Positions 2,423 through 31,183 of a stretch of DNA of 64,000 nt are shown here, in pieces. Each line of letters begins with the position of its first letter. Positions within the stretch are counted from its first letter, which is position 1. The notes beneath the pieces were generated by a model. It was not told where the DNA came from and did no database searches. It worked only from the letters and a program-made list of their open reading frames with translations. This DNA is from a virus, in IMG/VR virus record IMGVR_UViG_3300027747_001183; one strand, written 5' to 3'. The translations under genes were made by a program, and so were the position numbers.

Positions 2423-3466
2423 TTACCTTAAGAACTGGTCTTCGAAGTGGTCATGCTCTACTGAGCAAGTCTTTGCACACATTCGCAGTTTTCCTTCTGC
2501 GAGTGACGGCGCGCTCCATGACTTCTCAATCTTATCAAAGAATCCGCTCTCGAAGACGCCGTTTATACCGTGCACCTTTGCATCTATATCTGATTTATCA
2601 CTTATTATGTGCTTAAACAGGTGACTGTCTTTATATTTTGATACTTCGGGATCATACATCTCGGAGCCACCTATCCAGCAGCAAGGTACCACTAGCCCTT
2701 CTGCACTAACGTACATTGAATTCTGCTTAACGACCCTGCACCCAATCTCAGTCTTATCTAAGAACTTATCCCAGCCCCCAAACTTCTGCTTAGCGCGCTC
2801 TCTAAAGTCGTTTACGTCGTGTACGTATTCTTTCTTTTCCGGCTGAGATAGGTGTTTATATACTGACATGCCGTTCTGCCAGCGCGATGTACGCTTTGGT
2901 ATAAAAGCCTTGAACCCTAGCTTCTTAGCCAGTGCTCGAGCTTCTTCTACCTGATGCTCGTTGTGCTTGAACACTAGAAAGTGCCACTCGGCTTGGCCGC
3001 CAGCACCTATGAAAGACTCCATCGCATTCATTACCCTGTCCCACTGGACGTTTTCTCTGTAGATATGGTTCGTATCTTCCAGTCCATCGACCGAGAAGGT
3101 AACTCGACCTTCATACAGCACCGATGCTAGGTCTCTCCACCACTCTGAGCTGCGCGCTCCTCCGTTGGTGAACATGCTCAGCTTCATAGATAGATTAGTA
3201 TACCTAAAATACTCAAACACTTCAAGCGTGTCTCTAGCCATTATAGGATCGCCGAAGTTTCCACACATGTACATGGCATGGAGCTGCTTGATAAAGTCTT
3301 TCTCAAAGATGTTCTTGCAGTCTTCTAGAGAAAGCTCAGCGTTCGTTAGGTGGTGCATTAGCTTTCCGCTACCGCTGCTGTCGTGTCTAGGACACATGGC
3401 GCAGCCGGCCTGACACTTCTCAGTTATCTCTAGGTGTACCTTGCGTATATCCCTGTACTTATACAT
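2423..3466 (-). CDS. Radical SAM protein with C-terminal SPASM/Twitch domain
   Basis: CQAGCAMC, GNFGDP and TNGG; C-terminal PCC..CAKTC; ATG at 3466 overlaps the upstream TGA. Confidence 0.88.
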   Translation of the reverse strand: MYKYRDIRKVHLEITEKCQAGCAMCPRHDSSGSGKLMHHLTNAELSLEDCKNIFEKDFIKQLHAMYMCGNFGDPIMARDTLEVFEYFRYTNLSMKLSMFTNGGARSSEWWRDLASVLYEGRVTFSVDGLEDTNHIYRENVQWDRVMNAMESFIGAGGQAEWHFLVFKHNEHQVEEARALAKKLGFKAFIPKRTSRWQNGMSVYKHLSQPEKKEYVHDVNDFRERAKQKFGGWDKFLDKTEIGCRVVKQNSMYVSAEGLVVPCCWIGGSEMYDPEVSKYKDSHLFKHIISDKSDIDAKVHGINGVFESGFFDKIEKSWSAPSLAEGKLRMCAKTCSVEHDHFEDQFLR

Positions 3467-3681
3467 CAGATGGTCGTCGGTGACTTCATCGGATCGTAAG
3501 GGTCGATCTTCTCTATGCGGCTGAGAGCGTCTTTCTCGTAGCGAAGAACTTGATACCATCCGAGGAAGGCAGTAAAGTCTGCAAACATGGCCGAGTAGTT
3601 CTGGTTGAAGATCTCAATGATAAAAGAAACCGCGACTACTGCTAGGATCGCGTACGAGAGCTTAATAAAGGTATGTATCAT
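3466..3681 (-). CDS. Hypothetical small membrane protein
   Basis: 71-aa ORF coupled to both neighbours; hydrophobic N-terminus. Confidence 0.65.
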   Translation of the reverse strand: MIHTFIKLSYAILAVVAVSFIIEIFNQNYSAMFADFTAFLGWYQVLRYEKDALSRIEKIDPYDPMKSPTTI

Positions 3682-7594: not shown

Positions 7595-8680
7595 TCACAA
7601 TCGGGGTAGGGAGCCTCCCCTGTGAAGCTCCGTGGTATTGCAGTGGATTCCACCATCAAAAAAGAATCTGTGTCTCAGGGGTGATATGTGTGGCACTATG
7701 CCATGCTTCTCAAAGGCATCAAAAGCCTGCTTGTTATAAGAAGAAACTATGACGTTCTTCTCATCTATTGTCAAAATATTGACATCAAATATGTTTTCTC
7801 TGATATGCTTAGACCAGTCATTCATCCACTTCTCTACGTACTCTACGAGCTCGTCATCGTCCTGAGCTCTAGGCATGTACCACTTTCCATGGTTCTTCTT
7901 CTTTGAAGCAAGAAAATCATTCATTGAATTTAGTCTGCTGTTCTTGAAGTAGATGACTTCCCATCCGGGGAACGTCTTACTATAAGTGTCTGGGCTATAG
8001 ACTGAGAATATAAGACCCGGCTTTACTGGATTAAAGCAGCCATCTGTATGACCACCACTCGTTACAGGAATGACGCTGTAGTCTCTAAGCCAGTTCTCCC
8101 ACACGTAGTCTACAGCGTCTATCATCTCAAAGTCGGTAAGCTTCTTGCTCGATCCAAAGAGTATATCTTTGCCAGTTCTCCATATACCGTTTAGCCTAAT
8201 TAGGCTTAAAACATCATCGCTCTCACCTCGAATTATCTTATTTCCGTTTGACTCAACATAGTCAAATACATTATCAAAGCACGAACTTAAGTTTTCTTTT
8301 TTGATGTCTTCAAGACTTAGCTTTATAGCACACTGTCTATTCTGCTTTATAACAATCTGATCGGGTGGAAATGAAAAGAACTTATCTCCTATCATTATTA
8401 TCTGGTCTCTAGGTACAGCGGAGACTGCAGGTGGTATGCTTATACCCTTTGATATATACTTTTCTGTATCTACTAGCGGCACCCTAGGGCGCAATACGTC
8501 TATGTTAAACGTCTTTAAGATGGAGATTAGTTTCTGCTTGTCTTCTTCCACCTCTATCGCAATCTGCTCAAACAGATTGCGAAGCCTACGGTTCTTCATA
8601 AAGCTAAAGAACTCAGGTGGGTAGCTTCTTCCTACCACGCATACCTTGAGTGGGTCCCACTCTTGATTCACTGTTAACAT
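7595..8680 (-). CDS. Amidinotransferase-like (pentein fold) protein
   Basis: EWDPLKVCVVG start, PRD, GGHTDG (His) and GGIHCNT (Cys) as in glycine/inosamine amidinotransferases. Confidence 0.82.
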   Translation of the reverse strand: MLTVNQEWDPLKVCVVGRSYPPEFFSFMKNRRLRNLFEQIAIEVEEDKQKLISILKTFNIDVLRPRVPLVDTEKYISKGISIPPAVSAVPRDQIIMIGDKFFSFPPDQIVIKQNRQCAIKLSLEDIKKENLSSCFDNVFDYVESNGNKIIRGESDDVLSLIRLNGIWRTGKDILFGSSKKLTDFEMIDAVDYVWENWLRDYSVIPVTSGGHTDGCFNPVKPGLIFSVYSPDTYSKTFPGWEVIYFKNSRLNSMNDFLASKKKNHGKWYMPRAQDDDELVEYVEKWMNDWSKHIRENIFDVNILTIDEKNVIVSSYNKQAFDAFEKHGIVPHISPLRHRFFFDGGIHCNTTELHRGGSLPRL

Positions 8681-8682
8681 GT

Positions 8683-9300
8683 CTAAGCGGTGTACCTCTT
8701 CATTGATCCGTCTGGTCTGACGTGATACGCATGGAACTGAGTGTGTGGGTATTCTCTCTTGAGTCCTAAGAAAGCATCCAAGTTCTCGTGGCTGTCATCA
8801 TACATCCTAACGTGAGTGTAGGGATGATTTGCGAGGTGCTGTCTAATGAATGTAAGCTTCTTGTTAGCCGGCTTCTCGTTACCCGGAATGTTTCCAGCTC
8901 GATGCACATGGATGTCGTGCATGTTATGAATGCCATGCGCAGTGAGAGTATTTAAGAACCTGTGCTTGTCATCGAAGTCTGCTCGAGCCGTGTTGATGAT
9001 GACCCTGTTCTTTGGGTTCTTCTTCCTAGTCGCAGAAGTAGCATTGATCGTGTTGATCATGCGATGGATCGGCTTTGACTTACTAAACACGCGAGAGCTC
9101 TTGAACTCATGATAGTCGTAGTGGTGTCCGGGTGGAAGCCTATGGCTGTTGTACTCAGACGTAGTCAGCTTCTGGACAGTATGCCCGTGTGGGTCCTTTA
9201 CGTGCACCTTCGCGTTCGAGTGGACTAGCGTATCGTCCACGTCGAACACGTGCAGTGTAGATGACTCTGATATGAACTCTGAGAAGGGCTTCAGTTGCAT
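8683..9300 (-). CDS. HAD-superfamily phosphatase-like protein with a capsid-targeting-like N-terminus
   Basis: FDVDDTL (motif I), NTAR, K and YDDS; start MQLKPFSEFISE. Confidence 0.8.
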   Translation of the reverse strand: MQLKPFSEFISESSTLHVFDVDDTLVHSNAKVHVKDPHGHTVQKLTTSEYNSHRLPPGHHYDYHEFKSSRVFSKSKPIHRMINTINATSATRKKNPKNRVIINTARADFDDKHRFLNTLTAHGIHNMHDIHVHRAGNIPGNEKPANKKLTFIRQHLANHPYTHVRMYDDSHENLDAFLGLKREYPHTQFHAYHVRPDGSMKRYTA

Positions 9301-9590
9301 ATTCTTTGATACTGTTCTACCCAAGCGTATCCATTCCACTGACGACCCATGAATACTATCTGACACTGGCGATCGTAGATCGAAGGCTCTTGAATGTAGG
9401 TACGCTGCTGGTTAGCCATGATGCCGCCGAGGATCATGCCGCCGATGAGTCCGCCGAAGAGTGCTGCTCCAGCGTCACCGCCACGGTTGTAGTAGTTGCG
9501 CTGCTCGAAGCGACGCTGTTCCCATCCATGGGCTGAGGCTACCGATGTCATCGCCATCGTTGCTGCTAGCGCTATTGCGATCTTTCTCAT
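9291..9590 (-). CDS. Exported glycine-zipper-like protein
   Basis: Signal peptide MRKIAIALAA...ASA; GAALFGGLIGGMILGG. Confidence 0.75.
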   Translation of the reverse strand: MRKIAIALAATMAMTSVASAHGWEQRRFEQRNYYNRGGDAGAALFGGLIGGMILGGIMANQQRTYIQEPSIYDRQCQIVFMGRQWNGYAWVEQYQRICN

Positions 9591-9615
9591 ATCAATCTCC
9601 ATTGCTTATATTATT

Positions 9616-9644
9616 AATATAGCGGTTTTATTAAAAAAGGTCAA
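9616..9644 (-). promoter_or_regulatory. Sigma70-type early promoter (repeat family)
   Basis: TTGACC-N17-TATATT. Confidence 0.75.
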
Positions 9645-9652
9645 CAGTTATT

Positions 9653-9886
9653 TTAGCTGTTATCTCCATTAAAAGCATTGGCATAATCGTTGAGTTGGGA
9701 AGGTGTCAAGCTAGCCAAGAAAGGATCAACCTTCTGAGGACGACGAACAGAAGATAGGCTAGCCCATGGGCTAACACGACGAACAGCATCCTGGATATCT
9801 GCATCATTGCAGCCATCTGGCAAGCGAACTGTTACCGTACCACCAAAGTCTGCGTAACCCTTAGGCCAAACTTCCAGAAGAATCAT
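9653..9886 (-). CDS. Hypothetical protein
   Basis: Start MILLEVW after a GGAGAG RBS and promoter. Confidence 0.7.
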   Translation of the reverse strand: MILLEVWPKGYADFGGTVTVRLPDGCNDADIQDAVRRVSPWASLSSVRRPQKVDPFLASLTPSQLNDYANAFNGDNS

Positions 9887-9913
9887 TTGTATCTCTCCAT
9901 TGCTTATATTATT

Positions 9914-9942
9914 AATATAGTCTTTTTTTGAAAAAATGTCAA
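9914..9942 (-). promoter_or_regulatory. Sigma70-type early promoter (repeat family)
   Basis: TTGACA-N17-TATATT. Confidence 0.8.
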
Positions 9943-13100: not shown

Positions 13101-14081
13101 TTACTTCTTTTTCTTCATTGCTTCTAGCTGAGAAGGGTCTGCAGTAGCAGACGCGCCTATAGACGCGAGTGCAGCGAGCTTGCCGCCGAACGTATAGAAG
13201 CCTGCATGCTGAAGGTGCATCCAAGGGCAGAGCCAGATCTTCATGCCGATCTTGCGGACCAGCTGACAGAACCAGTAGTCCTCAGAGAGGTAGCGCTCAG
13301 ACGATGCATCCTGCTTAGCCTTAGCGTCTTCCATGATAGTCTTGATAGACGTCGGGTCGATGGTCTCACCGTTTGCGATGCGAGCAAGGATAGCCTCGTA
13401 TTCCTTGGCTGGGTTGTAGCGGTCGACCTCAGCTTGGAAGTACTGGCCGATGCGACGAGTGCCGTCGAACTCAGCTGTACGAACGTGATCAGGCTTATAC
13501 ATGATCTCAGGGTATTCCTTCACGAAGTTCATAAATGTATCGCGACGAACCATCATGAAGCCGGTACCGAGTTCGAGAACTTCTGCAGGCTCGTCGAGCT
13601 TGATGCTCTTAGAAGACTCACCCGGTTCCATGACTGGGTTGAACACGAAGTCGCCGACGAAGTCTTCGAGGTTTGCTGGGTTCTCTTCAGCGACGCCGCG
13701 GTCGACTGCCATCTTGATCTTTTCCCAAGTGATGCACTTCTTAGGATACGCACCGCCGATTACGTCGTACGGAGACTCTTCAGTCTGCAGGGCTAATAGA
13801 GCCAGTACGTCCTGAGGGTTGAAGCCGATGTCGGAATCGATGAATAATAGATGAGTATATCCTGAACGCAGGAATTCGTCAACACAATAGTTGCGAGCGC
13901 GAGTGATAAGTGACTCATTGAATAGGAAGTACGAGCGCATCTCGATGCCGTACTTCAAGCACATTGCAGTAAGGTCGCACATTGCTCGGGCATACATGCC
14001 GTTACAAGCGCCGCCGTACATAGGAGTCGCTACGAAGAGCTTGTTCTTCTGCAGAGCCTCGATGTTGATTTGAATTTCCAT
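13101..14081 (-). CDS. GT-A-fold glycosyltransferase-like protein
   Basis: VATPMYGG, ESLITRARN, LLFIDSDI (DxD), GTGFMM and YLSEDYWFC. Confidence 0.75.
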   Translation of the reverse strand: MEIQINIEALQKNKLFVATPMYGGACNGMYARAMCDLTAMCLKYGIEMRSYFLFNESLITRARNYCVDEFLRSGYTHLLFIDSDIGFNPQDVLALLALQTEESPYDVIGGAYPKKCITWEKIKMAVDRGVAEENPANLEDFVGDFVFNPVMEPGESSKSIKLDEPAEVLELGTGFMMVRRDTFMNFVKEYPEIMYKPDHVRTAEFDGTRRIGQYFQAEVDRYNPAKEYEAILARIANGETIDPTSIKTIMEDAKAKQDASSERYLSEDYWFCQLVRKIGMKIWLCPWMHLQHAGFYTFGGKLAALASIGASATADPSQLEAMKKKK

Positions 14082-14085
14082 TGTA

Positions 14086-14274
14086 TTACCACCTTTCGTC
14101 GTCGATAATGATTGTTATTTTAATGAGACCTGCTCTTAGTACTGCGCTTAGTATTAGTCCAGGGTCGTGATCGCTTACAGTAGAATAGTCTAAATAGAAC
14201 CTCCACTTAAGTGGGTTCAGAAAAAGTGTAATGACGATGTCAGACTGTCTTAGATATGATAGGAACTTCTTCAC
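14086..14274 (-). CDS. Hypothetical protein
   Basis: 62-aa coupled ORF. Confidence 0.55.
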   Translation of the reverse strand: MKKFLSYLRQSDIVITLFLNPLKWRFYLDYSTVSDHDPGLILSAVLRAGLIKITIIIDDERW

Positions 14275-14591
14275 TTGTCGTCCTCAAACTGTTCATCGTG
14301 TACGTAGAGCTGCATGACTGCGTAGTGAATGACCTTCATCATGTCCTTACGCCAGTCATCGGGACTGCCCTTACGGCCGTAGCGCTGGGCGTACTTGAGT
14401 ACGTTGCCAACGCAGAAGCCAGTGCCGTGACCGGAGTCGATGATGAACTCCGTGGCCTGAAACTTGTTCTTTGAGTAGTGCTCACCGTACGTATTGTTAA
14501 TATAATCTAAGATCTGATTAATGTACACATCTTCTTTGTACTTATACTTTGGCGCGTTCTGCTGGTCAACACCGAACTTAACAAAAGACAT
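14271..14591 (-). CDS. DUF3310-like protein
   Basis: HY..GFCVGNVLKYAQRYGRK..DMMKVIHYA. Confidence 0.8.
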   Translation of the reverse strand: MSFVKFGVDQQNAPKYKYKEDVYINQILDYINNTYGEHYSKNKFQATEFIIDSGHGTGFCVGNVLKYAQRYGRKGSPDDWRKDMMKVIHYAVMQLYVHDEQFEDDK

Positions 14592-15790
14592 TAGAAGAAC
14601 TCCTCGAGTGTTAGAGCTTTGGCTCCGGGTGTCTCGATCCTGTGATCGAAGTTGTACTGGAAAGTATACGTAGAGTTGATCATCGGTCTCTGCCCGTTGA
14701 GATAAGCGAGGACCTCAGTGGCCATGTCCTCTGCTGTCTGCACCGGTACGTTCTGACACATGTGATTGACGCTCTTCTCTGGATCTAGAAGCTCGAAGTT
14801 ATCTGGGAGACCCATGATCGATAGGCCCTCGCGGTACGTGATATACCTGTCCTCGACTGGATGAGTCAGCGATGTTGGGTAGTGACCGACGAAAGCACCG
14901 ATGTAGTCCTTAGGAATAACCGTGCCGCGGCGCATGATGTTGGCTCCTGTAGCCAGCTTATCGAACTTTCTCTTGCATCCGGCTACTTCTTTCTCATAGC
15001 CATGACGAGCCATCCACTCACCGACCTGCTCGTAGTTCCTACCCATCTTCTCTATGTATGAGAACGCATCATTGCCTCTAGCTCTCGATGGCTCAACGAT
15101 CTTAGCGAACTCAGCGTGAGTTATCCCACCGTGAATGTCCTCGAGGATGTATCGGTAGTAGGGGTCCTGAGATGGAGTCTTCTTGTTGATGGGATCCTGC
15201 AGGGTATTTCCCCTAGCATCTAAGATCGTCTGCTCGATTGACTTGTAAGGTCGATTGTACCAGCTGAGCTGGGGAGTCTCATCTCCCTCCCAGAAGAAGT
15301 AGAACGACCTCTCTCGAACTTGAGGGACGCCGTGGAGCATCGAGCGAGTGCGGTACACAGTCATTGAGTACTTGTTCTCTCTGGCTATGTCGTACATCTG
15401 CGTCCTGATGTTCTCACCGATCTTGCCAGCAAATCCTGGAGCGTTCTCACCCCAGAAAACTTTTGGCTTGAGCTCACCGAGAACTAGCTTCGTGGTCTCG
15501 AGCATCCACTTGTTGTTTGGATTGTGATCACCGAAGCCGTGAGACATCTGAGATAGGCCGGCGCAGGGGCACACTGAGGCTATGACGTCAACTTTCTTCG
15601 GAGCAGATTGGTTCTTATCTAGAACGTAGTAGGGCACCTCGTTGTTGTAGTGATTAACGATGTGCCGGTCATTTGGCCAGAATGTCTCGTATGATAGGAA
15701 GTACTCTGGTCTGGCACCGAACGCTCGCTCAGTGCCTATCGTCTCACCGCCTATAAGCGGGATGATAGATGCATGTGTAAAGGTCATCAC
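14591..15790 (-). CDS. DNA cytosine-C5 methyltransferase-like protein with atypical motif I
   Basis: CPCAGLS (motif IV), ENAP (VI), PQVRER (VIII), RYITYRE..MGLP (IX) and QNVP (X); motif I reads IPLIGG. Confidence 0.82.
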   Translation of the reverse strand: MMTFTHASIIPLIGGETIGTERAFGARPEYFLSYETFWPNDRHIVNHYNNEVPYYVLDKNQSAPKKVDVIASVCPCAGLSQMSHGFGDHNPNNKWMLETTKLVLGELKPKVFWGENAPGFAGKIGENIRTQMYDIARENKYSMTVYRTRSMLHGVPQVRERSFYFFWEGDETPQLSWYNRPYKSIEQTILDARGNTLQDPINKKTPSQDPYYRYILEDIHGGITHAEFAKIVEPSRARGNDAFSYIEKMGRNYEQVGEWMARHGYEKEVAGCKRKFDKLATGANIMRRGTVIPKDYIGAFVGHYPTSLTHPVEDRYITYREGLSIMGLPDNFELLDPEKSVNHMCQNVPVQTAEDMATEVLAYLNGQRPMINSTYTFQYNFDHRIETPGAKALTLEEFF

Positions 15791-16636
15791 TTACTCATTG
15801 TTAAATTTGACGTTCTGGGCTTTCTCGCGATCGTCCAGTTCAGTATATTTATTACGGATCTCTGAGTTCTTCTTAATAGCTTCCTGCAAAAGTGTGAATG
15901 GCTCATTAATTTTTTTAGAGTAGTGAAGTATAGCGCTGGTGTCTTTTGGAAAGCAAGCTCCACCGAATCCCTCCCTACCATCCGGACCCGGAACTTGCAT
16001 GTGAGTCATTCCAATTCTGGGATCAGCTGATAGGATCTTAGTGAAGTAGTCCCATGAGCAGTTGGCGTCGGTGCTGTCAAAGATCTGCTTGAACTGGTTG
16101 AAGAAGAGGACCTTAGTAGCTAGGAAGGAGTTCATAGCGTACTTCACCAGAGATGCGGTGTAGATGTCGGTAGTGAATACCGGACACGGATTGCAGATGC
16201 TGTGGTCCTCATAGAGCTTCTTGCAGAACTCAACGTCTTTCTGCTTTCCTCCGAGAACGAGTGCGTGAGCGTTGACAAAGTCGTGCTTGGCCGTCCTCTC
16301 AGTTAAGAACTCTGGGTTGTACACCAGACGGTTGCACATTGCATCGAGCTTTCTTAGAACGTCAGGAGTTACCGTGCTCTTGATGATGACGACTGGGTCG
16401 TAGTCGTACTTTGAGATGTCATTGAGAACGCTCTCGATGATGCTCGAGTCAATTGAGCCGTCATCTCCCATCGGCGTCGGCACAGAGACGAAGATGACAT
16501 CGAGATTGAAGTCTCGCATCTCGTTTACTGTAAGAGAAGTATAAGCTGGATCTACTATGTACTTCTCAACTGAGTTAGTAAATCCAAAGTCAACGGCTTT
16601 TCCGACGAAGCCGTACCCAACAATTCCTATCTTCAT
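15791..16636 (-). CDS. Short UDP-glucose/GDP-mannose dehydrogenase-family protein
   Basis: GYGFVG, VPTP, KSTV, NPEFL and GFGGACFPKD; no C-terminal UDP-binding domain. Confidence 0.9.
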   Translation of the reverse strand: MKIGIVGYGFVGKAVDFGFTNSVEKYIVDPAYTSLTVNEMRDFNLDVIFVSVPTPMGDDGSIDSSIIESVLNDISKYDYDPVVIIKSTVTPDVLRKLDAMCNRLVYNPEFLTERTAKHDFVNAHALVLGGKQKDVEFCKKLYEDHSICNPCPVFTTDIYTASLVKYAMNSFLATKVLFFNQFKQIFDSTDANCSWDYFTKILSADPRIGMTHMQVPGPDGREGFGGACFPKDTSAILHYSKKINEPFTLLQEAIKKNSEIRNKYTELDDREKAQNVKFNNE

Positions 16637-17640
16637 CAGAACATCCTCTCGGTCCAAGTCTTGGGAGTCTTCTCGTTTTGTATCTCAATTGGCAGGTGGT
16701 AGTTGAAGTCCTTAGGACCTCGCATGCGAATGAAGTCGGCGGTGAGCTTAACGGCATCAGCTACCGTCGTAGTCGTCTCGTACTTGAGAAGCAGTCGAGC
16801 TTTATCACTCGAGCACACCGCGTGCTTTACTTCGCATGGCCGGCCCTCTTTGTAGTAGACCGGAGGTAAGTTGAGTCCGGTCTCGTTAGCGCAGAGCTTA
16901 GCCAGCTCATTGATAGTTATGAACTCCTCATCGGGGCCGATGTTGATGATCTCGCGGTTGATGCTGCGATCTAATCCCATCTTCTCTAAGCACGCGATGC
17001 AGTCGTCTACATATGAGAAGCACCGCGTCTGCTCACCATCGCCGTAGATGATCGATGGTAGCCCGCGCAGGTTTCGATTGAGCATGATCGACATGACGTT
17101 GCGGAACGGGTCGTCGTACTTCTGGTTAGGACCAACGATGTTGTGGGGGACTGCGATGTTCCACTCAATGCCGTGCACTTCGCCCATCACTTTTAGAACC
17201 TCCTCAGCGGCGACTTTCGCGATGCCGTACGGATCTACTGGCATCGGCTTCATGTCCTCTGAGAACGGAGGTTGCTGCTCACCGTACCTAGCCATCGACG
17301 TGCAGTTGACTATGCGCTTTACGCCAGCCGCTACTGCAGCTGAGAACGTAGCTACTGAGGCCTCGAAGATGTTGCTGGTAATGAAAGATGGAGAGAATAC
17401 CGAGAGGCCCTCGTGGGCTGTTGCCGCGCAGTGGTATAGTAGGTCGTAGCCAGTGAGGGCGCGCTTCATCGCCTCTTGGTCCCTGCAGTCGATCGCGTCG
17501 AACTTAACGAATGAGTGCACGTTGTACTCATCGCCACCGACCATGCTGTCGTTGCCACCGACTTCGTGGCCGAGATCATGCATTCGCTTCGCGATGTGCG
17601 ATCCTAAGAATCCGGCTACGCCGGTCACATATACTTTCAT
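16636..17640 (-). CDS. NAD-dependent nucleotide-sugar epimerase/dehydratase (extended SDR)
   Basis: TGVAGFLG, PYGIAK (YxxxK) and YGDGEQTRCFSYVDD. Confidence 0.92.
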   Translation of the reverse strand: MKVYVTGVAGFLGSHIAKRMHDLGHEVGGNDSMVGGDEYNVHSFVKFDAIDCRDQEAMKRALTGYDLLYHCAATAHEGLSVFSPSFITSNIFEASVATFSAAVAAGVKRIVNCTSMARYGEQQPPFSEDMKPMPVDPYGIAKVAAEEVLKVMGEVHGIEWNIAVPHNIVGPNQKYDDPFRNVMSIMLNRNLRGLPSIIYGDGEQTRCFSYVDDCIACLEKMGLDRSINREIINIGPDEEFITINELAKLCANETGLNLPPVYYKEGRPCEVKHAVCSSDKARLLLKYETTTTVADAVKLTADFIRMRGPKDFNYHLPIEIQNEKTPKTWTERMF

Positions 17641-18770
17641 TCCGAAACCCTCTTTATAAAGTCCTCTGCCGTCTCTTTGACGATCCACTCTTTTTCTTCT
17701 TGTAGAAGAGAAACCACTTTATTGAAATTATCATGATCTCTAATAAATGTCAACTTATCTATGAATTCCTCCCGATCTTTAAAGTACAAGACGTGATTTA
17801 AGTAGTCGCTCTTCATGAACGTCTTCTTATCATCTACTGTCTGGTCGATCAGCATAGCTTTAGAAACGGTGAGACCTTGCAAGAACCGGTGATTAATTCC
17901 GGTGTTGTTCTGCATGGCGTTTCCGATGACGAGAGATGCTATGTGGTCCTCGTATATCTTCGAGACGTTTTCGAGAGATACCCTGACGTTGCTGTTATCC
18001 CTGAACTTAGCGATCTTTCCATAGAAGTTAATGAGCCCGTCTTTCTCTGCTTTTGAGTTGAACAAGTTAAGCTCATTGAGTCTGCGATGGCGCGATCGCT
18101 TGTTTGACCCGATGTAGCACACCGACTTCTTCAGCTCGCTGAATGATGGCTCAAAGAAGTTGTAGTAAGGCTCGCGTACATTGAATAGGTGCTCTCTCCA
18201 GGAGTCGATAAACTCGACTTCGTGGAACCTAGCGTGAATTGGATGATTGCGTATTGGATACGCTGAGCGCACGAAGAGGTTCTCTTTCTTCGTCTTGTAT
18301 ATGTTGTCCTCTAGCATGGACTTGGGGAAGTGCTTCTGCTTGTCCTCCATCGTCATCGGTGGAGAACCCATGTAAGTCAAGTTAGCAGTTAATACGTAGA
18401 GCTTCTCGTAGAACTTCTTGATGTACTCACCTTTGGCCATCTCTGGGTCGCAGAAGAAGTAGCTTATCCTTCCCTTGAACTTACAGAGGGAGTTGATCGT
18501 GAAGATGTGGTACTTGTTGATCTCACCACCAAAGAAGTTCGGTTCCTCTCTGTTCATGAGAAGCTCGTCGAACTGGTCAACATCGACGTCGCGGTGGACT
18601 GTCCTGTACTTCTTACTTGAGATGTCGTCGTTCACTAAGATGTAGGGCTCATGTCCCTGCTTCTCAAGAGCTAGGTACACACCGCAGATCTCCTCCACGG
18701 TATTGTTTGTCGGCTTGTCGTCGATGATCTGTATGCCGACGTCGGTTAGGAATATGAGTATCTTAGCCAT
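17637..18770 (-). CDS. DNA beta-glucosyltransferase-like protein (T4 BGT homologue)
   Basis: DVDVDQFDEL, NFFGG, ISYFFCD, ASLVIG and AMLID match recalled T4 BGT segments in the same order. Confidence 0.75.
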   Translation of the reverse strand: MAKILIFLTDVGIQIIDDKPTNNTVEEICGVYLALEKQGHEPYILVNDDISSKKYRTVHRDVDVDQFDELLMNREEPNFFGGEINKYHIFTINSLCKFKGRISYFFCDPEMAKGEYIKKFYEKLYVLTANLTYMGSPPMTMEDKQKHFPKSMLEDNIYKTKKENLFVRSAYPIRNHPIHARFHEVEFIDSWREHLFNVREPYYNFFEPSFSELKKSVCYIGSNKRSRHRRLNELNLFNSKAEKDGLINFYGKIAKFRDNSNVRVSLENVSKIYEDHIASLVIGNAMQNNTGINHRFLQGLTVSKAMLIDQTVDDKKTFMKSDYLNHVLYFKDREEFIDKLTFIRDHDNFNKVVSLLQEEKEWIVKETAEDFIKRVSE

Positions 18771-19170
18771 GTATGTAGTTCCTGCATAATTCGAGTTGCT
18801 CTAGCTCAAACTTAGGGTCGTTGAGCTTTCTATTTAGCCCGCTTGGATGTGGTAGTACGAAGTGATCGATGTTCAGCTTCTTGAGAGCGCTCGACGGGAA
18901 GTTCCCGAGAGCAACTACTCTATCATATCCAGCTGCGCTCTTAGAGAGTCGATCGTAGTCGATGTCTGCTCTAGTGTAGGGTCCTGCTTCGGAGATGCAG
19001 TTAGTAAATGATACGATTCCAGCTCCTATTCTATCGATCCAGAGTGGGAGCCTCCTCATAGTAGTATTTAGCTTTAAGTTCTTAGCAGAAGATGGATTGA
19101 TCCCCACAATCAGCACGCGCCGAGACGCCAGCTTCTTTGAAGATGTCCATCGTGATCTTGAACGAGTCAT
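18763..19170 (-). CDS. Short uracil-DNA-glycosylase-superfamily protein (true start probably ~19116)
   Basis: VLIVGINPS (motif A), VVALG and LPHPSG (motif B). Confidence 0.75.
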   Translation of the reverse strand: MTRSRSRWTSSKKLASRRVLIVGINPSSAKNLKLNTTMRRLPLWIDRIGAGIVSFTNCISEAGPYTRADIDYDRLSKSAAGYDRVVALGNFPSSALKKLNIDHFVLPHPSGLNRKLNDPKFELEQLELCRNYIHG

Positions 19171-19531
19171 TCCACTTCTCTCTGATGTTTTCTGGATAGC
19201 ACATGAAGACTCTCTTGATGCCTACTTGGACAACTCCTTTAGCGCACTCAGAACACACAGGAAGGCCGCTAACATAAAGATCTGCATTATCGAGGCTAAC
19301 TCCATTTAGAGTGGCGTTGTATATGCAGTTCATCTCTGCGTGCACAACGAACTTGTACTTCTGTTCCCTGTTAGAGAGCCTATCATTGGTGTCAGCTATG
19401 CCTCGGGGGAATCCGTTGTATCCCTGAGATAGGATCTGCCCTCCCTTACCAACAGCTACGGCGCCGACTTTAGTGCTAGGGTCCTTGGACCAGCAAGCGA
19501 TGTGGCCCGCTAAGTCCAAGTACTTGTTCAT
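19082..19531 (-). CDS. cd: dCMP deaminase
   Basis: SKDPSTKVGA, GYNG, HAEMN and PVCSEC; start approximate. Confidence 0.92.
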   Translation of the reverse strand: MNKYLDLAGHIACWSKDPSTKVGAVAVGKGGQILSQGYNGFPRGIADTNDRLSNREQKYKFVVHAEMNCIYNATLNGVSLDNADLYVSGLPVCSECAKGVVQVGIKRVFMCYPENIREKWNDSFKITMDIFKEAGVSARADCGDQSIFC

Positions 19532-19538
19532 CCAGCTC

Positions 19539-20186
19539 TCAGAGAACGAGGTCAAAGTGCCTCTCATAGATGTGCAGCGAAGCCGCGTTCCAATAGATAT
19601 TTCCAGTCTCGTAGCCGAGCTCATCGCACATGCGATCGAGCACGTATCTCTGCCACGCTCGATCGTTCTTGTAACCATAGATCACGTCGTTAGAACGCAT
19701 GTACACGAGAGCATGCAGGCGATTGTGGCGGATCATGTACTGAACTGTGTTGGTGCACATGAAGTCGCTCATGCCGTCGCGATTGTACTCACTCCACATT
19801 GTTGGACGGGTGTAGATCATCACCGCCCGACGAGACTCAGGGTTCATCTGAAGCTCGGAGACGACGTTGTCGTATTGAGCGTGGTTCTCATCCGACCACA
19901 CGCACCAGCCGTAGTTGGAGTTGATCTCACCATTCTCACTCGACACCTGCTGCCAGATCGCTGGAGGCCCGCCGGGAATATCGTTGACGTTGAGAGACAT
20001 CGACTCGTACCACTCGATCTCGCGCATGACGTAGTCTTCGTTGACTGTGCCAAAGATCGTGGGCTCATAGGCGATGAACGATGCGTTCATGATCTCGAGC
20101 ATCTTGACGCCGCTCTTGTCGCGAACGAAGTTGTTGTTCTCAAGATCATAGTGAAAAGTCGCTCGGATGTCCGGTATGGTCATCAT
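19539..20186 (-). CDS. 42: dCMP hydroxymethylase (T4 gp42 homologue)
   Basis: GEINSNYGW, SRRAVMIYTRP, GMSDFMCTNTVQY and MRSND closely match T4 gp42; Asp in YKND is the dCMP-specifying position. Confidence 0.93.
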   Translation of the reverse strand: MMTIPDIRATFHYDLENNNFVRDKSGVKMLEIMNASFIAYEPTIFGTVNEDYVMREIEWYESMSLNVNDIPGGPPAIWQQVSSENGEINSNYGWCVWSDENHAQYDNVVSELQMNPESRRAVMIYTRPTMWSEYNRDGMSDFMCTNTVQYMIRHNRLHALVYMRSNDVIYGYKNDRAWQRYVLDRMCDELGYETGNIYWNAASLHIYERHFDLVL

Positions 20187-20548
20187 TTGTTGCGGTCTTT
20201 CTCATAGTAGTATTGCGAGTGCTGCTTTGGATTATTGAATATGTCGCGCGTTTGATCTTGACCTTCGATGCCGCCACGAATCCAAGCGACCGCGAACGAT
20301 GCGTAGTTGATGAGATCTTTGTACGTATCTTCAAGAGACTCAAAGTTCGCTTGATCCGCACGGCCAGACTCAAGGAGCGACTGAGCGCGATAGAGCTTGC
20401 CTTGGAGAGTATCGTGGATTGAGTCTATGCCGCGACGATAGTGCATCGCCTGCTTTACGTTTGAGTTTGGGTTCTGATAGTCCTGAGACTTCTTGATCTG
20501 CAGGTCCATGCACTCTCTGAGTACCTTTACTGATTCTTTATCGCTCAT
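20183..20548 (-). CDS. Nucleotide-modification-associated all-alpha protein (DUF1599/Nmad1-like)
   Basis: KKSQDY...FESLEDTYKDLINYA. Confidence 0.75.
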   Translation of the reverse strand: MSDKESVKVLRECMDLQIKKSQDYQNPNSNVKQAMHYRRGIDSIHDTLQGKLYRAQSLLESGRADQANFESLEDTYKDLINYASFAVAWIRGGIEGQDQTRDIFNNPKQHSQYYYEKDRNK

Positions 20549-21123
20549 GCTGCTGCTCCATCAAAATAAACGTGATCGCGGTAGAAGGCATCGCCTGTCT
20601 TTACCGCGTTATGGTGGTCATAGTAAGATTTATTGGTGTAGTTAGAAGGGCGCACGTACTTCTCAAAAGTCTTTGCATCTGCAACTAAGTGAAATGCTAC
20701 CGTATAGAAAGACGGAGTGCGAAACACCTTTCCGGATACAAAGTAGTCGACGATGTCGACGTTCTTCATGAAGGTGTTGATGTCTTTGTAGTTAAAGCTG
20801 AACCACTTCTCAGCCCATCGCTTGCACTCAAAAGTGCAGTTATTCTCGTCAATCAAGTCATACGCGTACGAGTGACGATTAGTCTTATCAAACTCAAGTG
20901 GGTTGAGAGGAATTCCAGTCAGCTGTGCGAGCGCGTGCTCGACGACCATCTTCTCGACAGACTCGTGCACGGTCTTAAAATTTCGCTTAGATGAGTTTCG
21001 TACTGGACAGCGGTATATTTCGTTTGCAATGTCGTTGAACTTCTTGTTAAGTTCTTCAGTACGCTTTACTTTTACAGGTTCTGCGGCCAAGATAATGCCG
21101 GCGTAGTATGCTAGATCTTTCAT
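20545..21123 (-). CDS. Hypothetical protein, possible PD-(D/E)xK nuclease
   Basis: VVEHAL..YDLI..FECK; has its own early promoter and AGGAG RBS. Confidence 0.55.
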   Translation of the reverse strand: MKDLAYYAGIILAAEPVKVKRTEELNKKFNDIANEIYRCPVRNSSKRNFKTVHESVEKMVVEHALAQLTGIPLNPLEFDKTNRHSYAYDLIDENNCTFECKRWAEKWFSFNYKDINTFMKNVDIVDYFVSGKVFRTPSFYTVAFHLVADAKTFEKYVRPSNYTNKSYYDHHNAVKTGDAFYRDHVYFDGAAA

Positions 21124-21164
21124 GGTAGTCTCCTAATTAAGCACTCAGTGCAGGTTACTATGTT

Positions 21165-21193
21165 AATATAGACTAATTCTGGAAAAATGTCAA
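21165..21193 (-). promoter_or_regulatory. Sigma70-type early promoter heading the DNA-modification operon
   Basis: TTGACA-N17-TATATT. Confidence 0.75.
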
Positions 21194-21591
21194 CCAAAGA
21201 TTTTACGCAAAAACCCGTAATTATTTGAATGGCTTGGACCGACCCAGCCTTCTGGCTTGATTAAGTCTGGCAGTCCCAGAGGGTTCGGGCGACTAGACTT
21301 GATGCCGGTCTGCTTGGTCATGTTGGCTTTCAAGACCTCGTCCCAAGCCTTGTGAGAGTCGACTCCGAAGCCGTCCAGTGTACCGATGGCCACGACGCAG
21401 AGGTCGATCAGGGCATCTACCACGTCTTCTGCATTCTCTGCGTTCTTGAGCTCAGTCAGCTCTTCCATGAGGAAGTCGATGCGGAACTGCAGAAACTTCT
21501 TGAGTGTATCTTCATCCATCTTGTCGATGACGGGGTGCACTCCATAGTGTGCGTGCATCATCGTAATATCAGTAGCCCAGTCTTTAGACAT
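21190..21591 (-). CDS. MazG-like/PRA-PH-like nucleoside triphosphate pyrophosphohydrolase
   Basis: EELTEL..DALIDL..AWDEVLKANM..DLIKPEGW. Confidence 0.85.
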   Translation of the reverse strand: MSKDWATDITMMHAHYGVHPVIDKMDEDTLKKFLQFRIDFLMEELTELKNAENAEDVVDALIDLCVVAIGTLDGFGVDSHKAWDEVLKANMTKQTGIKSSRPNPLGLPDLIKPEGWVGPSHSNNYGFLRKIFG

Positions 21592-22120
21592 TAATCCACT
21601 CCGGTGTTGGTCGCTTTGTCCACTTGTGCATCTGCGACTTTCCAATCTTATAATAGTTTCTATAGTTTGTCAACGGGTCATCCGAGATGATGTACTCGGG
21701 AGCCATGCACGACGGCATAGGCGTCATGTTCCAGTCCTTGAGGTTGTTAGGAGCATAGAAGAGAGCGCCCATGAGCTTCTCGCATGCATGGACCTTGCCG
21801 TATCGATAAGTGTACTCGAAGTGCAGGGCCTTGAGATGCTCGTACAGCCACTTGTAGTTGCCGACCGTAGTACGGCACCAGACAGCAGAAGGGTGGTTGA
21901 CGTGGGTAGCCGAGTACAGCATCTCCTCGCGGACGTCGGGTAGCACCCAGCGCTTGACCTTGCGGCCGGTCTTTGTCTGACCGACGTATTCCGTGCCGTC
22001 GATTACGCGATGAGCAGTAGACAGAAGCTGCGTAGTCTCGAGGATCATCTTGACCACGTGCTTGTCCACCATCATGGTGGCAGCTTCTACTGGGTTCTCA
22101 TCGATGTAGAATATGTTCAC
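21584..22120 (-). CDS. Pyrimidine-dimer DNA glycosylase (DenV-like) family protein
   Basis: MNIFY..DKHVVKMILE..QLLSTAH..NHPSAVW..YRNYY. Confidence 0.75.
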   Translation of the reverse strand: MNIFYIDENPVEAATMMVDKHVVKMILETTQLLSTAHRVIDGTEYVGQTKTGRKVKRWVLPDVREEMLYSATHVNHPSAVWCRTTVGNYKWLYEHLKALHFEYTYRYGKVHACEKLMGALFYAPNNLKDWNMTPMPSCMAPEYIISDDPLTNYRNYYKIGKSQMHKWTKRPTPEWINV

Positions 22121-22383
22121 TTGTCTTTATCCTTATACTCGGCTTCGGCCTGCTCGATAGCTCTCGTCAGTGCAGTGTTTATCCATGACTCGATCTTGGA
22201 CTGAAGCTCTTCCGTTACAGAGCCGGGTTTCATCGGCTCAAGATCATTATTATCCGTTATCCGGTAAATGTCAACTGCTATTGCCATGCCTTCTTCATCT
22301 TCCGTGATAAAGTCGCCTTCTGGGAAGCATACAAAGTAGTCGTCGATTCGAAAGCCGTCAGTATTTGATAGTTGTTTTTCCAT
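22117..22383 (-). CDS. Hypothetical acidic protein
   Basis: 88-aa coupled ORF. Confidence 0.7.
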   Translation of the reverse strand: MEKQLSNTDGFRIDDYFVCFPEGDFITEDEEGMAIAVDIYRITDNNDLEPMKPGSVTEELQSKIESWINTALTRAIEQAEAEYKDKDK

Positions 22384-22873
22384 TGTAGAATCCTTTCATT
22401 GCTCTGTCGCGGTGGTACTTGTTTGCACGATTGAAGAATAGTATGCCGTTTAGGTGGTCTATCTCGTGCTGTACTACGCGCGCAGTAAGACCGTCGAACG
22501 TCTTTGTGTCAAATCCTCCTGAAGGAGTCTGAAACCGCAGCCGTACAGTATTAGACCTCTTTACCTTCACGTTGACTCCGGGGAATGAAAGGCAGCCTTC
22601 TTCTAGAAGGTTCTCTTCCTCGCTCTTGAAGACTAGCTTTGGGTTGAAGCATACGAAGTTATGGTCTAGACCTCGCATCGCAAATACGCGATAGGGAATC
22701 CCTATCTGGTTTGCAGAGAGACCGATGCTTTTATGCTCATTCATCTTCTCGAGCATCGTAGAAGACAACTCATAGGGATCTTGCTGGGGATTTGCAAAGT
22801 CAAACAGCTGAGTTGCCGTAGTAAGTATATCATTGGGGTACTTTATCAGTTCCATAATTTTATATTCACTCAT
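22358..22873 (-). CDS. def: Peptide deformylase
   Basis: IGLSANQ, EGCLS and QHEIDH. Confidence 0.95.
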   Translation of the reverse strand: MSEYKIMELIKYPNDILTTATQLFDFANPQQDPYELSSTMLEKMNEHKSIGLSANQIGIPYRVFAMRGLDHNFVCFNPKLVFKSEEENLLEEGCLSFPGVNVKVKRSNTVRLRFQTPSGGFDTKTFDGLTARVVQHEIDHLNGILFFNRANKYHRDRAMKGFYNGKTTIKY

Positions 22874-30343: not shown

Positions 30344-30559
30344 ATGACTATGGCTAAAGTGAAGGTTACTATGATCGATCCACCGTCTGGGTGGAGATAC
30401 GGGTTTCCACGGGTACTGCCCGAAGAAGCCATGGGTAGGAATCTTGAGTGGATAGTTGAGCAGGGCTATCCGCAGTTCGAGATCGACAAGATGAAGGAAC
30501 ACTTCTACTGCCGTTACTGGGAAGCAGAGATTGAAGAATCAGACCTGCTTTTTTCTTAG
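30344..30559 (+). CDS. Hypothetical protein
   Basis: MIDPPSGWRYGFP..WIVEQGYP; start near MTMAK after AAGGA. Confidence 0.7.
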   Translation: MTMAKVKVTMIDPPSGWRYGFPRVLPEEAMGRNLEWIVEQGYPQFEIDKMKEHFYCRYWEAEIEESDLLFS

Positions 30560-31183
30560 GAAGTTAGCTTCTGAACTGACCAGATTGCGATTGGTAGGAA
30601 TCAATGGATCGTTTTCCATATGCCATCGCTTGCTTTTCTTGACCGTAAAGAAGACTTCGTGCTGTATCGCCCACTTTGCAGCCTGTACTATCTGATTCTC
30701 GTTAAAATTAAATGGGATAAAGTTCCATACTATCGCGATATCCATGCTCTTTCCCAAGAGCATGGCTTCTTTTACGGCTTCAAAGTCGGCCTTTGTAAAG
30801 TTCTTTCTATACATGCCGACGGTCTTTTCAAATCCGTCTATAGCAAAGACCACGCGGTCTCTCTTGTCAAGTATGCTATAGAGCTCTTTCCAGAACTCTA
30901 TCTTCTTTCCAGAGCCATTTGTATTAACGCTTATTGTCTTTCCGCTAGCTTTTAAGATCTTTACGATCTCTAAGAACTTTGGATGGTAGATAGGATCACC
31001 GAGACTTCCTGAAAACGTGATGTCTGTAATAGACTCAGTCTTTGCTATCTTCTCAATATGCTCTATCTTTATGTCAGCTATCTTTAGTAACTTTCCCATA
31101 CCAGTACGAATACACTTTGTGCAAGCAAGCCTACACCTGCTAGTCAGTTCTATGTGCATTCTGACTCTAGGAGTTACCAGCAA
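30539..31183 (-). CDS. Radical SAM core-only protein
   Basis: CRLACTKC, GSLGDP, TNGS and FAIDG; paralogous to 2423-3466. Confidence 0.85.
   Translation of the reverse strand: MLVTPRVRMHIELTSRCRLACTKCIRTGMGKLLKIADIKIEHIEKIAKTESITDITFSGSLGDPIYHPKFLEIVKILKASGKTISVNTNGSGKKIEFWKELYSILDKRDRVVFAIDGFEKTVGMYRKNFTKADFEAVKEAMLLGKSMDIAIVWNFIPFNFNENQIVQAAKWAIQHEVFFTVKKSKRWHMENDPLIPTNRNLVSSEANFLRKKQV

Follow-up and report, generated by a model that had tools for sequence, protein, structure and literature searches.

A predicted hydroxymethylcytosine cassette in an uncultured T4-like phage joins a distant T4 BGT relative to sugar-donor genes and may place a hexuronic acid on DNA

T4 glucosylates the 5-hydroxymethylcytosine (hmC) of its DNA with UDP-glucose taken from the host. 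What, then, are a nucleotide-sugar epimerase and a member of the UDP-glucose dehydrogenase (UGDH) family doing in a phage operon directly beside a relative of the T4 β-glucosyltransferase (BGT)? The question is raised by IMG/VR record IMGVR_UViG_3300027747_001183, of which a stretch of 64,000 nucleotides, hereafter the window, was analyzed. This 64-kb window belongs to the genome of a T4-like phage. Nearly all its genes lie on the minus strand; they include T4-type genes for RegA, gp62, gp44, gp45, gp46, gp47, UvsW, UvsY and gp23 and, between gp45 and gp46, a cassette of 11 back-to-back minus-strand genes (14271-21591). We read the cassette as a pre-replicative hmC pathway in which the BGT-like enzyme would attach a phage-made hexuronic acid, galacturonic acid (GalA) or glucuronic acid (GlcA), to hmC. 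The phage is uncultured and known from its genes alone, and we give this reading as a whole slightly better than an even chance. Starting from the upstream end, the genes of the cassette are as follows.

21190-21591, minus strand: MazG-like all-alpha NTP pyrophosphohydrolase, 133 aa from the ATG (PF01503 E 1e-7; phrog_671 E 9e-18)
20545-21123, minus strand: conserved 192-aa protein with a D...E-C-K motif (homologues at the same position in 14 related loci)
20183-20548, minus strand: Nmad1/DUF1599 protein, 121 aa (PF07659 26.3 bits, cut-off 25; phrog_1485 E 1e-12)
19539-20186, minus strand: predicted dCMP hydroxymethylase of T4 gp42 type (phmmer E 9.8e-87 to T4 gp42, 1B49/1B5E)
19082-19531, minus strand: dCMP deaminase, 149 aa from MNKYL (PF00383 E 2.8e-17; phrog_174 E 7e-41)
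18763-19170, minus strand: small protein resembling the uracil-DNA glycosylase (UDG) superfamily (Pfam UDG 21.4 bits, below the cut-off of 24.3; family and AlphaFold2 (AF2) model)
17637-18770, minus strand: BGT-like GT-B DNA glycosyltransferase, 377 aa (phmmer E 7.3e-8 to T4 BGT; fold)
16636-17640, minus strand: extended short-chain dehydrogenase/reductase (SDR) resembling nucleotide-sugar 4-epimerases, 334 aa (PF01370 E 6.5e-39)
15791-16636, minus strand: short two-domain enzyme of the UDP-glucose/GDP-mannose dehydrogenase family, 281 aa (PF03721, PF00984)
14591-15787, minus strand: C5-cytosine methyltransferase (MTase)-like protein, 398 aa, with a non-canonical motif I (PF00145 69 bits)
14271-14591, minus strand: DUF3310 protein, 106 aa, with a T7 gp1.7-type nucleotide-kinase domain (PF11753 E 1.2e-9)

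A preliminary description of this DNA had named nine of these genes as contiguous and mostly overlapping. All nine were found on the minus strand where it had placed them, and the junction lengths agree with its wording: after the 192-aa gene they are -4, -4, +7, -89, -8, -4, -1, +3 and -1 nt, with overlapping stop and start codons from the UDG-like gene through the UGDH. The 66-nt gap behind the MazG-like gene is the exception in an otherwise compact block (-89 to +7 nt). The 192-aa gene inside the block and the DUF3310 gene come in addition to the nine.

The enzyme on which the reading turns, the BGT-like transferase, is by its sequence and its modelled fold a distant but real relative of T4 BGT. 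Its phmmer match to T4 BGT runs over two collinear stretches, and it matches phrog_7922 at E 1.2e-13 and PF09198 (CAZy family GT63) at 24.2 bits, below the Pfam cut-off of 27. D108 and R295 correspond to Asp100, the catalytic base of T4 BGT, and to its UDP-binding Arg269, and both are invariant in eight family members; at the position of T4 BGT Glu272 the window protein has Gln. An AF2 model built on the family alignment reached a pLDDT of 86.8. Its top six Foldseek matches in the PDB were all T4 BGT (TM 0.69-0.73, E 5e-14 to 1e-11), the next GT-B enzyme followed at TM 0.45 and all other GT-B enzymes stayed below 0.5. Identity to T4 BGT in the structural alignments is 16-19%. The family is also rare, with 8 clusters among the 5.8 billion proteins of a word-indexed search and, when a profile was run against 1.84 billion cluster representatives, 115 matches at E <= 1e-3, 11 of them at E <= 1e-30. 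No match was obtained by tblastn against 50,697 phage records or by a back-translated pattern scan of IMG/VR. One relative, P0130 (907 aa), carries a DUF5906/VapE-like N-terminal part of primase-helicase type fused to a full BGT-like domain (residues 521-905), and this arrangement suggests that the BGT-like family is coupled to replication proteins.

The acceptor of such a transferase would be hmC, and the hydroxymethylase of the cassette points to that base. Residues 2-214 align with residues 6-225 of T4 gp42 in a full-length phmmer match, and the gp42 proteins of Citrobacter phages Moon and Merlin share ~62% identity with it. Homology to gp42 does not by itself fix the product, since the 'gp42' of RB69 and many other Straboviridae actually makes 5-hydroxy-dCMP, and such synthases are recognized by an Asn where E. 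coli ThyA has Asp169 (bioRxiv 10.1101/2025.06.16.659550). The thymidylate synthase (TS) homologue in the window has Asp at the ThyA-169 position, which rules it out as a 5-hydroxy-dCMP synthase. It also keeps the catalytic Cys148, Asp179 (the equivalent of ThyA N177D, associated with dCMP specificity) and Glu60, and has Asp at the ThyA-143 position. The resulting five-residue signature, E/D/C/D/D, is found in the window enzyme and in 69 of 69 fully aligned cassette homologues. Because Asp at ThyA-169 is accompanied by the catalytic Cys, Asp179, an acidic ThyA-143 residue and Glu60, the enzyme is predicted to be a 5-hydroxymethyl-dCMP (5hm-dCMP) synthase of the T4 gp42 type.

Other members of the cassette would complete the replacement of cytosine. 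A MazG-like gene lies upstream of the hydroxymethylase in most related cassettes, and its product is probably a dCTPase, a functional analogue of T4 gp56. The DUF3310 protein, which also matches several PHROGs annotated as nucleotide kinase, is by analogy with T4 gp1 a candidate 5hm-dCMP kinase. Where a related locus shows both genes, the Nmad1/DUF1599 gene almost always directly precedes the hydroxymethylase. No member of the TET/JBP family was found in Pfam scans of the operon genes and the other open reading frames scanned. The part of the preliminary interpretation that concerns the base and the transferase is borne out: the genes make up an hmC pathway that acts before replication, as the gp42 match (E 9.8e-87) indicates, and the transferase is by sequence and fold a genuine homologue of BGT.

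We then come to the sugar, for which the SDR and the short UGDH are the relevant enzymes. The SDR contains the GxxGxxG motif (GVAGFLG) and the Ser...YxxxK triad (PYGIAK). Its best PDB match is the UDP-glucose 4-epimerase of T. maritima, 4ZRM (E 6e-37, residues 16-321), followed by the UDP-GlcA 4-epimerases 6ZL6 and MoeE5, then by UDP-GlcNAc epimerases and, further off, by UDP-xylose synthases (UXS). We regard it as nucleotide-sugar 4-epimerase-like and leave its specificity open. A pentose donor, UDP-xylose or UDP-arabinose made by oxidation and subsequent decarboxylation, was among the options of the preliminary description, and UXS-type decarboxylases do occur among the PDB matches (E ~1e-21). 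However, the epimerases score far better (E 6e-37), and the active site of the SDR, T-S-M-A-R-Y-G, contains no acidic residue. UXS and ArnA decarboxylases read Thr-Ser-Glu where the SDR has Ser-Met-Ala, and 4,6-dehydratases likewise have a Glu; the acid/base Glu two residues after the catalytic Ser/Thr is missing from the SDR, and we consider the pentose scarcely credible.

The UGDH-like protein consists of an N-terminal PF03721 domain (E 4e-15) and a central PF00984 domain (E 1e-16), with a GYGFVG Rossmann motif, a GGACFPKD motif holding the catalytic Cys, and conserved Thr, Glu, Glu, Lys, Asn and Asp at the aligned positions. Its two-domain length is not an artefact, because more than 7500 relatives, cellular ones included, are ~282 aa long; the short UGDH is encoded on at least 595 IMG/VR contigs. 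An in-frame stop between the UGDH and the MTase-like gene that would hide a fusion or a lost UGDH domain was considered and rejected, as the MTase-like protein opens with a motif I of its own and the UGDH relatives are all ~282 aa. An epimerase and short-UGDH pair was also observed between primase and UvsX in Phage C48C1 (L001, OQ984149; Kyanoviridae, 156 kb, circular; 8024-9924), where it adjoins a DNA methyltransferase; no BGT-like gene was detected in that record.

Epimerase/dehydrogenase pairs of the WbpP/WbpO and TviC/TviB kind are established in O-antigen and Vi synthesis, and a pair of this style could supply an N-acetylated hexuronic acid. The SDR would then be a UDP-GlcNAc 4-epimerase and the dehydrogenase a UDP-HexNAc 6-dehydrogenase, together giving hmC with an N-acetylated hexuronic acid. 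WbgU and WbpP, both UDP-GlcNAc 4-epimerases, are among the PDB structures that the SDR matches; in NCBIfam the SDR weakly matches TviC, and the dehydrogenase has weak matches to UDP-ManNAc dehydrogenases. The best NCBIfam matches of the dehydrogenase are nevertheless UDP-glucose 6-dehydrogenases (AglM, TuaD), and we judge the N-acetylated sugar very improbable, though not to the degree of the pentose.

Whether the donor enzymes belong to the transferase was examined through their co-occurrence, a check that had been proposed together with the original idea. Contigs of BGT-like relatives were searched with the window proteins, which gave 9 distinct contexts including the window, and the outcome was positive. 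In six of the nine, namely the window, L002, L003, L005/6, L232 and L234/235, an SDR of one and the same type and a short UGDH come directly after the BGT-like gene. The contig of L004 ends inside the SDR that follows its BGT-like gene, and in L231 the UGDH alone comes next. The SDRs of the BGT-like loci are 64-83% identical to that of the window. In L234/235 the BGT-like protein is 34% identical to that of the window and the three genes stand in a different neighborhood with no hydroxymethylase beside them; therefore, BGT-like, SDR and UGDH travel as a unit. Other phages have, in the same place, an AGT-like (PF11440) or TAGT-type (PF20691) transferase beside a different SDR (~25% identical) and a short UGDH. 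The SDR type co-varies with the glycosyltransferase (GT) family, type A going with BGT-like enzymes and the ~25%-identical type with AGT-like ones.

A wider comparison of the cassette showed a fixed frame around a variable island. An IMG/VR search with the MTase-like protein yielded 203 contigs, and 79 new loci were analyzed. From MazG the genes usually run on through (192-aa protein), Nmad1, hydroxymethylase, deaminase, (UDG-like) and a variable interval to MTase-like and DUF3310. The interval from the deaminase or UDG-like gene to the MTase-like gene measures 1.1-4.5 kb in the 58 loci with a deaminase match. It holds an AGT-like GT alone in 24 of these loci, a GT with an SDR in 5, a GT with both SDR and UGDH in 1, and a cytidylyltransferase with a GT in 2; an SDR, a 363-aa protein and a UDP-galactopyranose mutase occur in 2, and a 374-aa protein and a mutase in 1. 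The remaining islands of the 58 encode proteins without recognized identity. With BGT-like, SDR and UGDH in 3.0 kb, the window adds one more variant, and AGT with UGDH (L017) and TAGT, MTase, SDR and UGDH (L071) are further ones. Therefore, DNA glycosyltransferases of three families each sit beside donor enzymes inside hmC cassettes. Such combinatorial islands are the pattern expected if the island encodes a transferase together with the synthesis of its donor, and it is chiefly from this pattern and the conserved BGT-like/SDR/UGDH trio that we argue for the UGDH and SDR as suppliers of the DNA transferase.

Several islands deserve separate mention. A UDP-galactopyranose mutase lies inside the island of the hmC cassette in L169 (7540-8559) and in L178 (8992-9999), the latter also with an epimerase, and from these genes we predict galactofuranosyl-hmC in both phages. 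The island proteins of ~360-400 aa in L155, L178 and L206 were considered as possible BGT-like relatives and discarded, hhalign with the BGT-like profile showing no relation. On the 137-kb contig of L071, the TAGT variant, a ribosomal protein S21 gene (PF01165; 10881-11141, plus strand) comes right after the short UGDH.

The pathway we propose for the window runs as follows. The MazG-type pyrophosphatase would convert dCTP to dCMP, and the gp42-type enzyme would turn dCMP into 5hm-dCMP. The DUF3310 kinase and the host NDP kinase would raise this to the triphosphate, from which the phage polymerase would put hmC into DNA, and the dCMP deaminase would supply dTMP synthesis. The short UGDH would oxidize a UDP-hexose at C6 and the SDR 4-epimerase would invert C4, yielding a UDP-hexuronic acid. 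As an epimerase is present, the donor would most simply, and most probably, be UDP-GalA, and otherwise UDP-GlcA. The BGT-like GT-B enzyme would flip hmC out of the duplex and move the sugar onto the 5-hydroxymethyl group. The product, hexuronosyl-hmC, would carry a negative charge and should protect the DNA from restriction and from other defenses that target it. For base replacement and transfer these predictions rest on strong homology; the step of donor synthesis and the identity of the sugar we infer from gene content and conserved linkage, and our prediction of the sugar itself is about as likely to prove wrong as right.

A number of findings weigh against a hexuronic acid on hmC. The closest solved relative of the SDR is a UDP-glucose 4-epimerase. 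The SDR furthermore lacks the carboxylate-binding Thr126-Ser127-Ser128 motif of the B. cereus UDP-GlcA 4-epimerase UGAepi (6ZL6), and has Ser-Met-Ala aligned to it. The UGDH-like protein has no C-terminal UDP-binding domain (PF03720), ending at profile position ~300 of 413, and its 150 bits against TIGR03026 are below the NCBIfam cut-off of 189.8; therefore, its substrate may not be UDP-glucose. Both enzymes are also found far from hmC genes. A 53%-identical short UGDH is part of a cellular glycan cluster, beside NeuB, DegT and GT2 genes, no hydroxymethylase is nearby in 17 of 23 well-flanked short-UGDH loci, and a 177-kb phage contig, 86% complete, has the UGDH and SDR and no TS-family gene. 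In 58 IMG/VR loci, SDR relatives of 47-75% identity occur with no other cassette gene, and the closest viral ones (75%) lie in glycan islands free of hmC genes, with GDP-mannose dehydratase, DegT aminotransferase and GT1/GT4 genes. The short UGDH and the SDR are general phage glycan genes recruited to the cassette, and recruitment is no proof of the product. In L007, the BGT-like gene is followed by an MTase-like gene only, with neither SDR nor UGDH adjoining. Finally, the co-occurrence counts come from related phages whose synteny is partly inherited, and they are not independent events.

A rival reading is a neutral hexose on hmC, which would be glucose if the enzyme draws on UDP-glucose of the host or galactose if the epimerase provides it, with the UGDH, and perhaps the SDR, acting as auxiliary metabolic genes for another glycoconjugate of the host envelope or the virion. 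The wide occurrence of this UGDH and SDR type in hmC-free phage contigs and cellular glycan clusters, the UDP-glucose 4-epimerase as best solved relative of the SDR, the bare BGT-like gene of L007 and the missing UDP-binding domain all favor it. It accounts poorly for the translational coupling of the island genes and their bracketing by hmC genes, for a trio that moves as a unit to another context, for the co-variation of SDR type with GT family, and for the other donor-making enzymes that other variants carry at the same spot. We consider a neutral hexose unlikely but of real weight among the alternatives. Returning to the hexuronic acid, the earlier proposal that a divergent BGT transfers a phage-made sugar to hmC was thus strengthened by the BGT homology, the linkage of the trio and the donor enzymes of the variants, and left uncertain by the occurrence of UGDH and SDR in non-hmC phages and cellular clusters. 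Of the sugars that the proposal named, the uronic acid or its epimer has the linkage on its side and, on the other, a UGDH without UDP-binding domain and an SDR without the carboxylate-binding Ser-Ser; the decarboxylated pentose is improbable, the SDR having no Glu two residues after the catalytic Ser/Thr.

How far the cassette departs from known systems can be judged by comparison. It shares the logic of T-even glucosyl-hmC (T4 gp56, gp42, gp1, cd, alpha-gt and beta-gt), in which dCTP is excluded, a TS homologue makes 5hm-dCMP and hmC is glycosylated after replication. The window hydroxymethylase is ~60% identical to T-even gp42 and the transferase is homologous to T4 BGT by sequence and fold. 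It differs in that the transferase is very distant, the putative dCTPase is of MazG type and the kinase candidate of DUF3310 type, and in the added epimerase, dehydrogenase, UDG-like, Nmad1 and C5-MTase-like genes.

Hexuronic acid on 5hmC has been obtained before, as a phage GT and its partner epimerase gave hexuronic-acid-5hmC in E. coli, and the same study described contigs with ThyS-associated GT-B enzymes and with epimerase and methyltransferase neighbors ('Virus-encoded glycosyltransferases hypermodify DNA with diverse glycans', bioRxiv 10.1101/2023.12.21.572611). Its 'subclass II' clusters resemble the window in placing a DNA GT beside a sugar epimerase. The hexuronic acid pathways there start from a C5-MTase and TET and use GT57 GT-A/JGT-like enzymes, whereas in the window hmC would be made before replication, the GT is BGT-like and the cassette has its own short UGDH. 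UGDH is not mentioned in that paper, where the sole dehydrogenase term refers to a HAD-like enzyme.

Phage-encoded nucleoside diphosphate (NDP)-sugar synthesis is likewise known from the arabinosyl-5-hydroxycytosine systems of RB69 and DLP3 and the galactosyl (galactofuranose) system of RL38JI (bioRxiv 10.1101/2025.06.16.659550; also NAR 2026). These, like the window, have a TS homologue, DNA GTs and NDP-sugar genes in one cluster, and the UDP-galactopyranose mutase of RL38JI is shared with the cassette variants L169 and L178. Their TS homologues have Asn at ThyA-169 and make 5-hydroxy-dCMP, in contrast to the Asp of the window enzyme and of 69/69 relatives, and the sugar pathway differs too. 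A UGDH of Bacillus phage SP-15 has been linked to glucuronolactone on a modified base, a DHPU carrying glucose and phosphoglucuronolactone (PMC5977210). SP-15 thus also ties a phage UGDH to a uronic acid on a DNA base, and tblastn with the window UGDH finds the SP-15 enzyme at 31% identity; SP-15 differs in its thymine-derived base, its phosphodiester linkage, its genes and the group of phages to which it belongs. The MetaGPA paper (PMC8670742) contains no mention of UDPG, epimerase, dehydrogenase, DNA_methylase, DUF1599 or methyltransferase.

The principle that a phage brings its own donor enzymes for a DNA GT is therefore already published (RB69/DLP3 arabinose, RL38JI galactofuranose, the uronic acid of SP-15 and, most directly, the 2023 hexuronic-acid-5hmC), and the novelty implied in the preliminary description was overstated. 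New here are the BGT-family transferase in a sugar-acid role, the phage-borne short UGDH, the architecture of fixed frame and variable island, and the obligate MTase-like partner. If the reading is true, an enzyme of the T4 BGT family would work with an acidic donor made by the phage and every cytosine of a natural phage genome would carry a negative charge, which would extend what is known of the chemistry of both GT63 enzymes and DNA in native virions; hexuronic-acid-5hmC has so far been seen only in heterologous reconstitution, by GT-A-type enzymes. Cassettes of this kind are widespread in metagenomic contigs of T4-like phages, and their constant set of MazG, Nmad1, hydroxymethylase, deaminase, UDG-like, MTase-like and DUF3310 genes with its swapped island could serve as a map for predicting many glycosyl-hmC bases, and the island looks like a diversifying arms-race locus against modification-dependent defenses.

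The cassette also raises the question of what a cytosine-5 methyltransferase-like enzyme does in a genome expected to be cytosine-free. The protein scores 69 bits against PF00145 (cut-off 22), and 79 homologues all keep its PC (motif IV), ENA (motif VI), QxRxR (motif VIII) and QNVP motifs. Where the canonical motif I reads FxGxG, P-L-I-G-G stands without exception, and the Pfam match begins only at profile position 56; the presumed Glu of motif II varies (E32/K21/S16/T9), and TIGR00675 gives 32 bits against 100. The gene is tightly bound to hmC synthesis: 34 loci extend at least 7 kb upstream of it and all 34 carry a hydroxymethylase, and in the short-UGDH sample the two are both present in 6 loci, both absent in 17 and never found one alone. 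DUF3310 follows it in 60 of 71 related loci. With full replacement of C by hmC, a cytosine methylase would have no substrate on phage DNA, which leaves three possibilities: incomplete replacement, a site of action elsewhere, or action on hmC itself. The last could mean that the protein is no cytosine methylase but a dedicated hmC-DNA enzyme that attacks C6 of hmC or glycosyl-hmC covalently to exchange, remove or elaborate the 5-substituent, in which case the uronic-acid sugar would be either a passing stage or one product of two and the final base of an undescribed kind. The obligate hydroxymethylase linkage, the invariant catalytic motifs and the non-canonical motif I without a conserved motif II Glu fit this, and we hold it to be improbable, though worth keeping in view.

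The small UDG-like protein belongs to a conserved family, with 9 homologues at the same cassette position. It scores below cut-off in Pfam with both UDG (21.4 bits) and DUF1643 (20.8 bits), and has the motifs G-x-N/S-P-S and L-P-H-P-S-x-x-N-R-x-L-N-D, the latter containing HPS. Its AF2 model (pLDDT 83) matched in Foldseek almost exclusively the UDG superfamily (TDG, family-4 UDG, UdgX and MUG), at modest scores (TMq 0.55-0.62, E ~1e-3). The homologues of the 192-aa protein in the 14 related loci are 28-75% identical, and no Pfam, PHROG or PDB match was found for it. An atlas search gave DUF5843 as a lead, with a T4 endonuclease IV (denB) cluster at rank 14 (score 0.94); tblastn against phages returned nothing and the endonuclease IV lead was not confirmed. 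If it were true, the protein would be a nuclease for cytosine-containing DNA.

In the surroundings of the cassette, gp46 is nearest to that of Stenotrophomonas phage DLP_6, at <=52% identity, and 47-49% identical to those of Methylophilales phage Melnitz, Sinorhizobium phiM12 and cyanophages; megablast of the whole cluster against the 50,697 phage records gave no match and no close relative there. Directly upstream of the cassette, the gene at 21584-22120 (minus strand) has a weak match to denV-like pyrimidine-dimer glycosylases (PF03013 E 1.7e-4; phrog_624 E 9e-54), and a peptide deformylase gene follows further upstream at 22358-22873 (minus strand). The interval between cassette and gp45 contains a 326-aa phrog_1574 protein (13101-14081, minus strand; E 8e-61), in which a stretch F-I-D-S-D-I-G-F resembles the DxD motif of GT-A enzymes; homologues adjoin gp45 in 11 of 80 short-UGDH loci, and the protein could be a second glycosyltransferase candidate. 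Three radical SAM enzymes are dispersed over the window (841-2130, plus strand; 2423-3559 and 30539-31183, both minus strand), one of them with a weak SPASM match (PF13186, 20.1 bits, below the cut-off of 21.5).

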